A stretch of 64,000 nt of DNA from Sphingomonadales bacterium (GCA_038230675.1 JBBRMV010000003.1:33744-97743), one strand, 5' to 3'; positions 11,836 to 16,328 are shown, counted from the first letter of the stretch. Notes: a model not told the origin generated them from the sequence alone. Numbers and translations: made by a program.

Positions 11836-13221
11836 TCAATCGGCGCGGCGGTCCCCCGCTGGTTCGGCCGTCACCGATCGCCGCGTCGTCCGGTACAGGG
11901 CAATGCTGGCCTCAAGCTGTTCCTGCACGTTGACGATGCGCGCATCCTGCGCAGCAATCGAAAGGTCCTGCGCATCGATCACCGCCCAGAAATCGCCGCC
12001 GCTCGTCAGATAATGCCGCTCGGCGAGCGCCGCCGTCGCCCTGGCCCGCCGCTCGATGTCCGCGATCGTGACCGCGCGGCTGCGGGCATGCTCCACCGCC
12101 GACAGCGCATTTTCCACATCGGCAAGGGCCGCGAGCAAGGTTTGGCGATAATTTGCGACTGCCTCGCGCTGTCCGGCGGCGGCAAATTCCAGATTGCCGC
12201 GCAACCGGCTGCGGCCAAAAATCGGCGCCAGCAAAGCACCGCCCACGCTCATGCCCGCAAACGGCCCGGCGGTGAGGAAATTCTCCGCCGATCGACTGAC
12301 CGACAGATCGAGCCTTGGAAAAAAGGCAGCGCGCGCCTGTGCCACATCGCCGCCCGCTGCAAGAATCCGGTGTTCGGCAGCAGCGATATCGGCGCGCTCG
12401 ACCAGCAGTTGCGAAGGGCGGGGTATCGCGGTTGGCCGATAATCGAACCCTGCCAGATCGGCTGGCGCGGTCGCGAACCGGGGCGCCTCCTCCCCCAGCA
12501 ACAGCGCCAGCGCGGTCCGGGTCTGATCGAGCGACTGGTCAAGCCGGCTGCGTTCGGCGATCAACCGCTGGACACGGATCGCCTGCAGTCCGAGCGCGAT
12601 CGGTGTCGGGGCGCGACGGCGTTGCCGTGCAGCTATCCGGTGTTGAAGCTGCGTCGTTTCGGCGATCTGGCGATCGATCAGCGCCAGTCGCGCCTGGAAT
12701 GCGGCACGCAAGACATAAACCGTGGCGATCGTAGCGCCGATGTCGAGCGCAAGTGCCTGCGTATCGAGATCGGCGGCGCGCACGCGTTCGCGTGCGGCGC
12801 GGCGCCCGGCGGCGATCCCGCCCGAAAGGTCGATCGATATGCTGGCATCGAGCGCGGCAAAGCTGCTCGTAAAATCATAGGGGCTCCTGCCGCCGACGCG
12901 CGACGCGCTGCCGCCTGCCGATGCGGAAACCAGCGGCAGGCCGGTCGCGCGGGCGATGCGGACTTGCGACAACGTCTGATCGACACGCGCCCTCGCCGCG
13001 AGCAACGCCGGGCTCGCGATCATGGCCCGATCGATCAGCGCCGCCAATGGTGCTGACCCGAGCATATCGGCAAGCGACCGGTTGATCGGCGGGCTGCCCG
13101 GGTGCGGATGGCGCGTCCATTCATCCGACAGGATCGCCGTTGGCACGGCGATTTGCGGCGTCGGCGCACAACCGGCGAGCAGGACCGCGCAGCCGGCGGA
13201 AAATCGACAAAGCGGATGCAT
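11836..13221 (-). CDS. Outer membrane efflux factor (TolC/NodT-like lipoprotein)
   Basis: Lipobox LAGC; SPALLAARARV, PSQLLVERADIAAAE, ARAAFFPRLDL, YRQTLLAALADVENAL repeats. Confidence 0.85.
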   Translation of the reverse strand: MHPLCRFSAGCAVLLAGCAPTPQIAVPTAILSDEWTRHPHPGSPPINRSLADMLGSAPLAALIDRAMIASPALLAARARVDQTLSQVRIARATGLPLVSASAGGSASRVGGRSPYDFTSSFAALDASISIDLSGGIAAGRRAARERVRAADLDTQALALDIGATIATVYVLRAAFQARLALIDRQIAETTQLQHRIAARQRRRAPTPIALGLQAIRVQRLIAERSRLDQSLDQTRTALALLLGEEAPRFATAPADLAGFDYRPTAIPRPSQLLVERADIAAAEHRILAAGGDVAQARAAFFPRLDLSVSRSAENFLTAGPFAGMSVGGALLAPIFGRSRLRGNLEFAAAGQREAVANYRQTLLAALADVENALSAVEHARSRAVTIADIERRARATAALAERHYLTSGGDFWAVIDAQDLSIAAQDARIVNVQEQLEASIALYRTTRRSVTAEPAGDRRAD

Positions 13222-13362
13222 GGCACTGCCAGGATAATGGCAGCAGCCTGAAAAGCACGCGCACGTTACGCGGGCGTATCGGGACGACGTGCCATCGGGG
13301 GACCGTGCGACTCAGGCGATTTGCGCTGGAATCGAACAGCGGGCGCCGCTACAGACTGCATC

Positions 13363-13432
13363 AACCGCGTAACTGGCGATCGGGTGGAGCACCACCGGGG
13401 AGCGCGGGGCCAAAAGCCGCATCGCCTGGGCA
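13363..13432 (+). ncRNA. ZMP/ZTP (pfl) riboswitch
   Basis: P1 CCGCG(13365-69)/CGCGG(13403-07); conserved J1/2 UAACUGGCG; P2 GGUGG/CCACC; GGGGAGC; P3 GCC...GGC with loop GCAUCGCCUG; pseudoknot GGCG(13375-78)/CGCC(13423-26); ends CGCCUGGGCA as in the pfl consensus; 25 nt upstream of the ATG. Confidence 0.9.
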
Positions 13433-13457
13433 TTTTTTCGAACCGTTGGAGGTCGAT

Positions 13458-14162
13458 ATGCCTGAACTGAGTCCGATCCGCGTCGCGTTCCTGTTGTTTC
13501 CCGATGTCACCCAGCTCGATCTTACCGGCCCTGCGCAGGTGCTGTCGCGACTCGGCAACACGACGATCGATCTTGTCGCCCGTACGCTCGATCCCGTTGC
13601 GACCGATGCGGGATTTCCACTCCACCCCACCGCAAGTTTCGCCACTGCAATCCAGCCCGATATCCTTTGCGTGCCCGGCGGCTTCGGCGTGACGGCGGCG
13701 ATGGAGGATGAGGCGACGCTCGACTGGCTCCGCCAGACTGCCACGGGCGCGCAGTGGGTGACGAGCGTGTGTACCGGATCGATCCTGCTTGCCGCCGCGG
13801 GCCTGCTCACGGGTTACCGCGCGACGAGCCACTGGGCGCAGCATGGTCATCTCGCCGCCTTTGGCGCCATCCCCGAACACGCCCGCTATGTGTTCGATCG
13901 CAACCGCGTGACCGGCAGCGGGGTGACGGCGGGCATCGATTTCGCGCTCGCGCTGACCGCGCGCATCCGTGGCGATGCCCATGCGAGGATGGTTCAGTTG
14001 AGCCTCGAATACGATCCCGCGCCCCCGTTCGACAGTGGCTCTCCCGAAACCGCCGGGGCCGATGCGGTGGCAATGTATCGCAAGCGCGCCGCCCAGCTCG
14101 CGCCTGATCGTGACGCGCGGACGCTGGCGGCGGCGGCGCGGCTGAAGCGCGGCCCGGCCTAA
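13458..14162 (+). CDS. DJ-1/PfpI family protein, isocyanide (isonitrile) hydratase InhA-like
   Basis: GGAGG RBS at 13448-52; QLDLTGP (Asp), LCVPGG, SVCTGS (catalytic Cys), ATSHW, GVTAGIDF, QLSLEYDPAPPFDSGSP C-terminal tail typical of InhA. Confidence 0.88.
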   Translation: MPELSPIRVAFLLFPDVTQLDLTGPAQVLSRLGNTTIDLVARTLDPVATDAGFPLHPTASFATAIQPDILCVPGGFGVTAAMEDEATLDWLRQTATGAQWVTSVCTGSILLAAAGLLTGYRATSHWAQHGHLAAFGAIPEHARYVFDRNRVTGSGVTAGIDFALALTARIRGDAHARMVQLSLEYDPAPPFDSGSPETAGADAVAMYRKRAAQLAPDRDARTLAAAARLKRGPA

Positions 14163-14791
14163 TTGCGCGGCTTCATGCCCTTCACGCGGTGCCAGATATA
14201 GTAAGCCGCGCCGCCCACCAGCAGGATGGCGATCAGCGCGTCGGCGCTGTGAAATGCCGCTTTCAGCCAGGGGCTGCTGTTCCATTGCTCGCCCAGCTTC
14301 ATCCCCACCCATGCCAGCCCGAAGCACCACGGCCACGATCCCACAAACGTGTAGAGATGGAACGGCAGCACCGGCATCCGCGCGACGCCTGCGGGAAAGG
14401 CGATGAACGACCTGATGACGGGCAGCAGCCGCCCGATCAGCACCGCCGAATTGCCGAAACGCGCAAAGAAGCGATCGGCGGTGTCGAGCTCGCCCGGCCC
14501 GATCAGCAAATATCGGCCCCAGCGCTCGATTGCCGGGCGACCGCCGCGTTTGCCCAGTTCATAGGCCGGGATCGACCCGATATTACAGCCGATCGCGCCG
14601 GCGGTTGCTGCCAGATACAGGTTGAAGTGCCCCGTCGAGACAAGATAGCCCGCAAACGGCATGATGATTTCGGATGGGAGCGGAATACACGCCGATTCGA
14701 TCGCCATCAGCAGCGCAATGCCGAGATAGCCCCCCGAAGAGATCACCCAGATCGTAAAGCCGGCGAGGATGGTGAGGATTTGCTCGATCAT
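14159..14791 (-). CDS. dedA: DedA family membrane protein
   Basis: MAIESACIPLPSEIIMPFAG, GRLLPVIRSFIAFPAGVARM motifs. Confidence 0.92.
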   Translation of the reverse strand: MIEQILTILAGFTIWVISSGGYLGIALLMAIESACIPLPSEIIMPFAGYLVSTGHFNLYLAATAGAIGCNIGSIPAYELGKRGGRPAIERWGRYLLIGPGELDTADRFFARFGNSAVLIGRLLPVIRSFIAFPAGVARMPVLPFHLYTFVGSWPWCFGLAWVGMKLGEQWNSSPWLKAAFHSADALIAILLVGGAAYYIWHRVKGMKPRN

Positions 14792-14891: not shown

Positions 14892-16328
14892 CTATATCGA
14901 GCGGCGATGGGCCACGATCAGCGCCCAGCCGAGCCCGCATGCCAGCACGAGATAGGCCGCAACACCCGCCCAGGGCGACCAGCCCCAGAACTGGCTCGGC
15001 AAATCGCGAAATTGGCCCGCCGCCACATCGTCGAGCAAGATCGGGCGCCATAACGGCCAGGCCTGCGTGTCGGGCGCGAAAATCTCGGCAGCGGCGACCG
15101 CGAGATTGATCAGCATCGACAGCCCGAGCAATGCCAACAGGGCAATTCGCGCGCGCGCATTTTTGATGGCGCTCCAGATCGGTGCCAGTCCCAGCGCAAG
15201 AAACGGCAGAGCGGGCACCGAATGGCGCGGGCCTGTTGAATAACCGCCATCCCAATAAACATAGGCGGCGTTCACCAGCAACACGATCGCCACGACCGCG
15301 ATCGCCACGATCGCCGGCTGACGCGTCCGCGCCTCACGGGCCATGCCGTATAGCCCGAAGGGCGCCAGCAGCAGGATCGGCGCAACCCAGAACAGCCCCT
15401 TGCGCGGCCCGAACAGGATTTCGATCAGCACGGGCAATTTGGGATAAGTGAGCCCGAACAGCCCCTGATGCATCCCGTCAAAGCCGACCACGCCTTCATA
15501 GCCAAACTTCAACGGCACCCCGAATGCCGACAGGTTATACCCGATCATCGGCAGCCCGGCGTTGATCCCCCCGGCCACCGCGATGGCCAAAAGTCGCCAG
15601 CGCGCCGGGCTGCGCCAGATGCGGACCAGCGCCCATATCGCGATCGCACTCCCCGCAAGTACCGCCTGATATTCGATCACCACTGCCCAGCCGAGCGCGC
15701 CCCCCGCCAACAGCGCGAGCCAAGGGCGTGGGAGCGCATCACGCGTGCCCCGCCACACCGCCCAGAATGCCAGCATCAGCAACGCCCCCACCGCTGCGTG
15801 GCCGAAAATCGTCGTCGACCAGCCCCAGGCCGGGCTCCCCAGGCCATAGGCAATGGCCGCGAACAGCGCGGCCGAACGGCTCGCGGTGATGGCGCTCGCC
15901 ACGTGCCATAGCGCGACAGCGGCAAGGGCGGTGAGCAGGCCCGACGACAGGATCGCCGCCAGCCGCAAGCGCAGCCGCAAAAACGCCGCAAGCCGGGGAT
16001 TGTCGATCCGCTTGTCGAGATAGCCCGATCGCTCACCCGTAGCCAGCATCAGCGCGGCCACGACGGGGGTCGCCATCAGCGTCATTCCAGGCGCCTTGTC
16101 GAGATACAGGTGGGAGCCGAAATGCGCCTTGTCGATCGTCAGATGACCGAACTCGTCGATCGTCGCGTCGCCCTGCTCGACGAGCGAAATCGCAGCGAAC
16201 ATTCGCGTCGAATTATTGGGATTAAACTCCCAGGAGCCGAACCAGGCGGTCGACAACCAAACCAGCGCGAACAGGAGCAGCGGCACCGCCCTGCCGTGCT
16301 GCAGCAACCGCGCCAACCGCTCAGCCAA
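14892..16328 (-). CDS. Polytopic membrane protein, probable GT-C fold glycosyltransferase
   Basis: TM1 followed by an acidic periplasmic loop (NPNNSTR...DATIDE...YLDKAPG), 11-13 TM segments, late WDGGYSTGPRH motif. Confidence 0.6.
   Translation of the reverse strand: MAERLARLLQHGRAVPLLLFALVWLSTAWFGSWEFNPNNSTRMFAAISLVEQGDATIDEFGHLTIDKAHFGSHLYLDKAPGMTLMATPVVAALMLATGERSGYLDKRIDNPRLAAFLRLRLRLAAILSSGLLTALAAVALWHVASAITASRSAALFAAIAYGLGSPAWGWSTTIFGHAAVGALLMLAFWAVWRGTRDALPRPWLALLAGGALGWAVVIEYQAVLAGSAIAIWALVRIWRSPARWRLLAIAVAGGINAGLPMIGYNLSAFGVPLKFGYEGVVGFDGMHQGLFGLTYPKLPVLIEILFGPRKGLFWVAPILLLAPFGLYGMAREARTRQPAIVAIAVVAIVLLVNAAYVYWDGGYSTGPRHSVPALPFLALGLAPIWSAIKNARARIALLALLGLSMLINLAVAAAEIFAPDTQAWPLWRPILLDDVAAGQFRDLPSQFWGWSPWAGVAAYLVLACGLGWALIVAHRRSI

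Follow-up and report, generated by a model that had tools for sequence, protein, structure and literature searches.

Riboswitches that sense the Z-nucleotides ZMP and ZTP have been described in front of purH, fhs, pfl, glyA, folD and other purine or folate genes, the model examples being those of Clostridium beijerinckii pfl, Thermosinus carboxydivorans and Fusobacterium ulcerans. Isocyanide hydratase (ICH), a member of the DJ-1/PfpI family, has been studied in Pseudomonas fluorescens (PfICH), where Cys101 is the nucleophile and Asp17 acts as general acid, then as general base (PMC12570138). Here we analyse a 64,000-nucleotide (nt) stretch of DNA from a Sphingomonadales bacterium (GCA_038230675.1, JBBRMV010000003.1:33744-97743; hereafter the window, numbered from its first letter) in which an aptamer of the former class stands directly 5' of a gene of the latter family. 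We consider it likely that the RNA is a working ZMP/ZTP riboswitch which turns on the translation of a single gene, that of a catalytically intact ICH-family enzyme; ligand response, ON polarity and enzyme activity are predictions. The features of the leader and of the gene are:

13320-13358, plus strand: probable promoter region, placed by inference, with a weak -10-like TACAGA at 13350-55
13359-13438, plus strand: ZMP/ZTP riboswitch aptamer (full Rfam RF01750 model, and covariation in 31 homologous aptamers)
13428-13463, plus strand: predicted expression platform, 3' strand of P3 and start codon (minimum-energy folds and strand-blocking energies)
13434-13439, plus strand: U6 tract directly 3' of P3, specific to the window (leader alignment)
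13458-14162, plus strand: ICH-family DJ-1/PfpI gene, 234 aa (Pfam PF01965; PDB 6NI4/3NON)

The match to RF01750 (ZMP/ZTP riboswitch, pfl motif) at 13359-13438 (+) is the sole Rfam match in the window, and the only RF01750 match in the 2.87-Mb, 95%-complete Sphingomonadaceae genome from which the window is taken. It reaches 54.9 bits against a gathering threshold of 39 (E 3.5e-6) and covers model positions 1-86 of 86. The covariance-model search proposed by the initial annotation thus returned a significant full-length match, and the complete pfl/ZMP-ZTP aptamer it had claimed, with P1, P2, P3 and pseudoknot, is present. Read against the Rfam model, P1 joins CCGCGU (13365-70) to GCGCGG (13402-07) and P2 joins GUGG (13384-87) to CCAC (13392-95); a 2-bp helix is formed by C13373-U13374 with G13398-G13399, the P3 core is GCC (13416-18) with GGC (13429-31), and the pseudoknot unites GGCGA of J1/2 (13375-79) with UCGCC of the P3 loop (13422-26). 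The ATG at 13458 lies 24 nt from the end of P3 and 19 nt from the end of the Rfam match. The same architecture was examined in an alignment of 31 distinct ICH-linked aptamers, with the Rfam structure (pseudoknot included) as the model and slid partners as the control: 91.7% of the cells were paired, versus 38-48% in the slid controls. Both partners had changed at 9 pairs, including 6 in P1 and 2 in P2; the P3 core was almost invariant, as were, without exception (31/31), the four GGCG:CGCC pairs of the pseudoknot, while its fifth pair covaried (A-U in 20 aptamers, C-G in 6). The ICH-linked aptamers are under selection and their helices covary; the window RNA is an ordinary RF01750 member with a translational platform.

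The 234-aa product matches PF01965 (DJ-1/PfpI) at 94 bits, and its best solved relatives are the P. fluorescens ICH structures 6NI4 and 3NON (E ~5e-67, residues 7-232 aligned to 6-231), with 53% identity over the full length. The InhA-type motifs from which an ICH-like protein had been proposed in the initial annotation (LDLTGP, SVCTGS and EYDPAPPFDSGSP) are all there, and the full-length match to 3NON/6NI4 agrees with that assignment. Asp21, Cys105 and Thr106 of the window protein correspond to Asp17, Cys101 and Thr102 of PfICH; the GxGxTAGID loop is kept, and the ICH-specific C-terminal extension (the EYxPxPPF segment) is present as EYDPAPPF. Among 104 aligned homologs, 37 riboswitch-linked and 67 unlinked, Asp17, Cys101, Thr102, His121-Trp122 and Glu180-Tyr181 (PfICH numbering) are invariant. 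Gly150 and Ile152 of PfICH belong to the strained loop that gates helix H, and Gly150 has been mutated experimentally (G150T) to alter helix-H dynamics. The window protein carries Ser154 (codon 13917-13919) at the former position, a substitution unique to it among the 104 homologs, and Val156 at the latter, where every one of the aligned homologs has Val. Judged by its sequence, the window protein is an ordinary member of the ICH clade with the catalytic set intact and a predicted hydratase activity.

The pairing of this RNA with this gene is not due to chance. In total, 38 loci combine a ZTP aptamer with an ICH gene, 36 in Sphingomonadaceae (two ICH subclades) and 2 in another alphaproteobacterial family (a third subclade), which answers positively the survey of Sphingomonadales proposed by the initial annotation. 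All 37 loci checked pass the Rfam gathering threshold, and the 38th, in a genome of the same genus (G843), scored 65.9 bits in a whole-genome RF01750 search; the 37 loci homologous to the window's range from 49.6 to 67.2 bits (36 by Rfam cmscan, plus G843). ZTP elements occur in 10 of 151 genomes of the same family, exactly one in each, and five of these ten, the window counted, lie directly 5' of an ICH-like gene. The remaining five stand in front of rpiB-glyA-nrdR (two), folB, a phosphatase-like gene with two glutathione S-transferase (GST)-like genes, and sul1 (below the gathering threshold). An ICH homolog is found in 39 of the 151 genomes. No degenerate aptamer was detected at E up to 1 in 20 sphingomonad ICH loci that lack a ZTP match. 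Among the 80 closest ICH loci of GTDB species genomes, 30 have an aptamer that lies 23-34 nt 5' of the start codon; all 30 belong to Sphingomonas or Sphingomonadales and all pass gathering (49.6-65.7 bits), and the 24 negatives of this set that were scanned have no aptamer. The closest related locus, L031 from a Sphingomonadales metagenome-assembled genome, encodes a protein 89% identical to that of the window; the next come from named Sphingomonas species.

Wider samples place the association in context. Seventeen genomes of a 401-genome Alphaproteobacteria sample bear a ZTP element, and the 16 targets outside the window are glyA (7), purH (1), LysE-family exporters (3), unassigned open reading frames (3) and ICH-like genes (2). 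These last form the third ICH-like subclade, two species of a different family whose proteins are 43% identical to that of the window (BLASTP) and find ICH as best PDB match (1.8e-37). In a 401-genome Pseudomonadota sample, 27 genomes bear a ZTP element; among 25 further ZTP-bearing genomes, adjacency to an ICH gene was found in the same-genus G843 only, and at least 11 others have an ICH gene elsewhere, usually beside a divergent AraC regulator of the GlxA type (320-370 aa). A maximum-likelihood tree of 102 ICH homologs distributes the riboswitch-linked sphingomonad genes over two clades, about 49% identical to each other, in which they make up 32 of 49 and 3 of 7 rows; none is seen in Reyranella, Pantoea or a third sphingomonad clade (0/11 rows). 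The well-supported branches require at least five gains or losses of the riboswitch link. Taken with the third subclade in the other family, this leaves repeated gain of the association, or an old origin with frequent loss; both histories imply that the link is under selection.

How might the aptamer control the gene? In the minimum-energy fold of the window leader, the 3' strand of P3 (GGGCAU, 13428-33) pairs with AUGCCU at the start codon (13458-63), and this helix encloses a hairpin, UCGA(A)CC (13438-44) with GGUCGA (13451-56), whose 3' arm contains the last two G of the GGAGG ribosome-binding site (13448-52). The window fold becomes 6.8 kcal/mol less stable when the P3 strand is barred from pairing, a value that 2% of shuffles equal or exceed. 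The arrangement is general. In the folds of 34 of the 35 homologous leaders, this strand also has a downstream partner: UGGGCA meets AUGCCC at the start codon or a UGCCC box just 3' of the ribosome-binding site, and a pyrimidine box adjoining P3 (CCCUC, CCUUCC) pairs with GGAG. Over 34 leaders, blocking the P3 strand costs a mean of 7.1 kcal/mol versus 4.0 with shuffled downstream sequence, and 13 of the 34 fall at or below 0.05 in this shuffle test. The start-masking helix is conserved among Sphingomonas leaders. We thus propose that in the ligand-free RNA the GGGCAU strand of P3 would pair with the AUGCCU start codon and stack on the hairpin that covers part of GGAGG, masking the start region and blocking initiation. 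When 10-formyl-tetrahydrofolate (10-formyl-THF) runs short, ZMP/ZTP would accumulate and bind the aptamer, the GGCG:CGCC pseudoknot and P3 would lock, and withdrawal of the GGGCAU strand would open the start region. A translational ON switch is predicted because ligand binding would hold this strand in P3 and the pseudoknot.

A translational ON layout had already been proposed for this leader, on the basis of another helix; the layout stands but the helix does not, since it appears to be the start codon that is masked, by the 3' strand of P3, rather than the ribosome-binding site by the pseudoknot strand. The earlier candidate, AUCGCCU (13421-27) with AGG(U)CGAU (13450-57), gives a duplex of -7.8 kcal/mol, a value also reached by 22% of the shuffled target regions; in a set of 34 distinct homologous leaders, such pairings average -5.6 kcal/mol against -6.3 for shuffles, with 0/34 at or below 0.05. 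The window shares the pairing of AUCGCCU with AGGUCGAU with L031, its closest relative, and with no other leader. The window itself departs from its relatives just 3' of P3, where its U6 tract (13434-13439) stands at the place of the CCCUC box that faces the ribosome-binding site elsewhere (L031 has CCCUCG there). Since U6 replaces this box, the OFF state of the window would rest mainly on masking of the start codon. One could also see in GGGCAUUUUUUCG, directly 3' of P3, the tail of a terminator stabilised by the ligand, which would make the window a transcriptional OFF switch. We regard this as very improbable: the P3 core has three G-C pairs and a 10-nt loop, a terminator scan of the leader called none, U6 tract included, and the U tract is unique to the window, at the very position of the anti-ribosome-binding-site box. 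A terminator of the classical ZTP design is seen in the two loci of the other alphaproteobacterial family (L111/L112, genomes G486 and G179; 101-215), where the corresponding strand, CGCCUGGGC, would form the 5' arm of a hairpin of -30 kcal/mol, CGCCUGGGC...GCCCGGGCG, with the U-run UUUGUGUUUU behind it. As modelled, one gene family would thus be served by two switching mechanisms with one predicted ON polarity.

Several observations weigh against the proposed ZMP control of this enzyme. In the predicted OFF fold of the window, just 2 of the 5 nt of the ribosome-binding site are paired, and the fold z-scores of single leader sequences are not significant. No RNA-seq run is available for the window organism, the sole public run containing the sequence being a sediment metagenome. 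The riboswitch link is evidently dispensable, because the closest relative in the same genus (G109) has an ICH gene without a riboswitch, as do 17 of the 49 genes of the main clade. In addition, no active-site residue separates riboswitch-linked from unlinked ICH among the 104 homologs, and the four positions that do discriminate them all lie outside the tabulated catalytic motifs; the chemistry is, for this reason, probably that of characterised ICH. The absence of the riboswitch from many close orthologs, one of them in the same genus, is also what one would expect if the adjacency had no function and the aptamer were a chance match or the relic of another gene's control. We nevertheless hold this to be the least probable of all the readings considered here: the pairing is repeated at 38 loci that span two bacterial families and three subclades of ICH, the ICH gene stays in place beside neighbours that differ from locus to locus, the aptamers show compensatory changes and the leaders conserved start-masking helices, and the loci of the other family have a terminator-type platform of their own. 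That three enzyme subclades acquired or kept the pairing, and with two switching mechanisms, speaks for a genuine connection in physiology.

As regards transcription, a scan of the window leader with promoter consensus sequences called none. By eye, most homologous leaders contain a TTGnnn-N16-18-(C)TAnnnT motif ending 8-12 nt 5' of P1. Contigs from root metatranscriptomes, 90-95% identical to the S. kyeonggiensis locus, span aptamer and coding sequence; their support for co-transcription is weak, as such contigs have low depth and may derive in part from DNA. The genes around the riboswitch and ICH gene in the window are:

11836-13221, minus strand: NodT-family outer-membrane efflux lipoprotein gene, divergent (Pfam OEP; TIGR01845, 193 bits)
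14159-14791, minus strand: DedA/UptA-like gene, convergent (Pfam VTT_dom; NF052604, 146 bits)
14892-16328, minus strand: gene for a 478-aa multi-pass membrane protein (weak match to the LA_3751/LA_3752 putative glycosyltransferase family)

The ICH gene is monocistronic because its DedA/UptA neighbour is convergent. A conserved co-transcribed partner was sought across the ZTP-ICH loci and none was found, the gene being monocistronic and its neighbours variable: the NodT gene is not conserved among these loci. The DedA/UptA gene and the gene for the 478-aa membrane protein remain syntenic with ICH in many Sphingomonas loci. With NodT and DedA/UptA on either side, no AraC/GlxA regulator adjoins the window gene, as had been noted at the outset. 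Outside the riboswitch-bearing lineages, ICH is commonly paired with a divergent regulator of the GlxA type, made of a DJ-1 domain and an AraC helix-turn-helix (e.g. L072 459-1418, L079 457-1437 and L021 425-1441); the riboswitch in Sphingomonas occupies the place of this regulator. At one riboswitch-free ICH locus, L011, a long near-perfect palindrome (1391-1493) lies directly 5' of the gene; it is probably a hairpin element of the REP (repetitive extragenic palindromic) type, because microRNA models match both of its strands.

Other ZTP loci were seen in passing. Two have unusual targets, a dual-specificity-phosphatase-like gene followed by two GST-like genes (L004) and folB followed by a 2-hydroxyacid dehydrogenase gene (L006), and in three alphaproteobacterial genomes (L113, L120 and L121) ZTP elements stand on exporters of the LysE/RhtB family. 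At L010 (401-487; G089:C1:503300-503386), a ZTP-like match of 37.8 bits, against a gathering threshold of 39, lies about 110 nt 5' of a gene 100% identical to sul1, a gene found in at least 5000 plasmid records. Among the matches listed, those to typical class 1 integrons start about 95-101 nt into the query, which indicates that these integrons keep just the last few nucleotides of the aptamer-like stretch; a Novosphingobium plasmid (NZ_CP063448.1) retains the whole of it 5' of sul1. The stretch upstream of sul1 may be the relic of a ZTP riboswitch that controlled an ancestor of sul1.

What would an isocyanide hydratase do under the control of ZMP? Our best guess, a tentative one, is a defence or repair enzyme that is induced by a metabolic symptom and hydrates an isonitrile-type electrophile coinciding with, or causing, folate or purine failure. 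In its most explicit form, environmental isonitrile antibiotics would poison a metalloenzyme of folate or purine metabolism, ZMP would rise, and the riboswitch would induce the hydratase that destroys the poison. Isonitrile antibiotics bind metal centres, every genome tested depends on the zinc enzyme FolE, the full ICH catalytic set is kept, ICH is the only output of the ZMP signal in these genomes, and its location beside GlxA-type regulators in other Proteobacteria is as expected of detoxification genes induced by their substrate. This scenario is nonetheless doubtful, as it is drawn purely from chemistry, we know of no isonitrile that causes folate stress, and no isonitrile-related genes lie near the ZTP-ICH loci. 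Metal supply offers a second scenario, which we rate as unlikely: zinc limitation would make FolE fail, Z-nucleotides would rise, as they do in the ZagA control of Bacillus subtilis, and the hydratase would turn isonitrile metallophores into formamides, freeing zinc or copper within the cell, a role proposed for Rv0052 of Mycobacterium tuberculosis and the kupyaphores. In its favour, this ICH homolog is made when zinc is scarce and acts as a hydratase on kupyaphore isonitriles (PMC8872721), and ZTP accumulates on failure of the zinc-dependent FolE (reviewed in PMC7264889). FolE is of type IA in 16/16 genomes tested and the zinc-independent FolE2 is present in 0/16, but the pattern is identical with and without the riboswitch, so that FolE type does not discriminate and was abandoned as a test of the zinc idea. 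Moreover, no genes for metallophore synthesis or uptake stand beside the locus, and Zur is the usual regulator of zinc regulons.

The products of ICH are N-substituted formamides, and the initial annotation had suggested that the enzyme might supply one-carbon metabolism with formyl or formate units: the formyl group would be freed as formate and enter the 10-formyl-THF pool or purine synthesis. A route for formate does exist in some carriers, as Fhs (formate-THF ligase) is encoded in the window's genome (G000), G113 and G001, and PurT in G054. This suggestion is however weakened by the remaining genomes: in three of the seven ZTP-ICH genomes surveyed (G145, G486 and G179, 99-100% complete), neither Fhs nor PurT was found above the cut-off, and formate salvage was set aside as a general explanation. 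There is also no co-transcribed deformylase, and isonitriles are unlikely to be abundant enough to sustain purine synthesis. We consider salvage quite improbable, and bulk one-carbon supply less likely than a defence or repair role. Slightly less probable still, in our estimation, is the case of an ICH-like enzyme that acts on an endogenous metabolite derived from Z-nucleotides or folate rather than on foreign isonitriles, possibly clearing toxic ZMP (AICAR, 5-aminoimidazole-4-carboxamide ribonucleotide) or carrying out a folate-independent formyl chemistry. ON riboswitches commonly control the removal of their own ligand, and the purine intermediates FGAR (formylglycinamide ribonucleotide) and FAICAR (5-formamidoimidazole-4-carboxamide ribonucleotide) are themselves N-formamides, the product class of ICH. 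If true, this would mean a new enzymatic step in purine or one-carbon metabolism and an endogenous function for the ICH family.

Whatever the substrate, the pairing points to a role of the ICH family in one-carbon or purine stress. Unusual riboswitch-controlled genes have repeatedly revealed unknown metabolism, and in many Sphingomonas genomes the ICH family is the one output of a well-understood sensor that responds to a lack of 10-formyl-THF. The ZTP regulon is thus extended by an ICH-family target, and the purpose of isocyanide hydratase becomes a directly testable question. What is new is the target gene of the riboswitch, the RNA class and the protein family being both known. A full-text literature search found no paper tying ZTP riboswitches to DJ-1/PfpI or ICH genes, an earlier listing in the tables of Kim et al. 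2015 being possible; this agrees with the initial view that the role of ICH under ZTP control is undescribed.

Compared with described ZTP riboswitches (RF01750, pfl motif; Weinberg et al. 2010, PMC2864571; Kim, Nelson and Breaker 2015), the window RNA shares the two-subdomain aptamer design (P1/P2, P3 and GGCG:CGCC pseudoknot), conserves the consensus nucleotides and would switch ON in the same way, one 3' strand serving either P3 and the pseudoknot or the helix of the OFF state. The differences lie downstream. Whereas the model examples end transcription by a terminator, the window leader is predicted to mask the start codon and the ribosome-binding site; and whereas typical targets are purine, folate or one-carbon genes (glyA, purH, folB and rpiB-glyA for other alphaproteobacterial elements), the sole target in the window is an ICH-family DJ-1/PfpI gene. 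The enzyme, for its part, resembles P. fluorescens ICH (3NON, 6NI4; 53% identity) and InhA of P. putida N19-2, with catalytic residues, loop and C-terminal segment in common, and differs from known ICH in having Ser and Val in place of Gly150 and Ile152. It is controlled by a riboswitch, while ICH homologs in other Proteobacteria commonly stand by a divergent AraC regulator of the GlxA type. Two further systems appear relevant. Rv0052 of Mycobacterium tuberculosis, which hydrates the isonitriles of the zinc metallophore kupyaphore, is likewise an ICH-family enzyme tied to nutritional stress rather than to an obvious catabolic operon (PMC8872721); the likeness is one of family, and Rv0052 is actinobacterial, responds to a zinc signal and not through a riboswitch, and has a known substrate. 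ZagA, a zinc chaperone of Bacillus subtilis, differs in that the receptor is a protein and not an RNA, the effector a GTPase and not a hydratase, and the host a member of Firmicutes, but it provides a parallel in logic: there too, Z-nucleotides recruit a protein outside folate and purine metabolism when folate synthesis fails (Chandrangsu et al. 2019, reviewed in PMC7264889).

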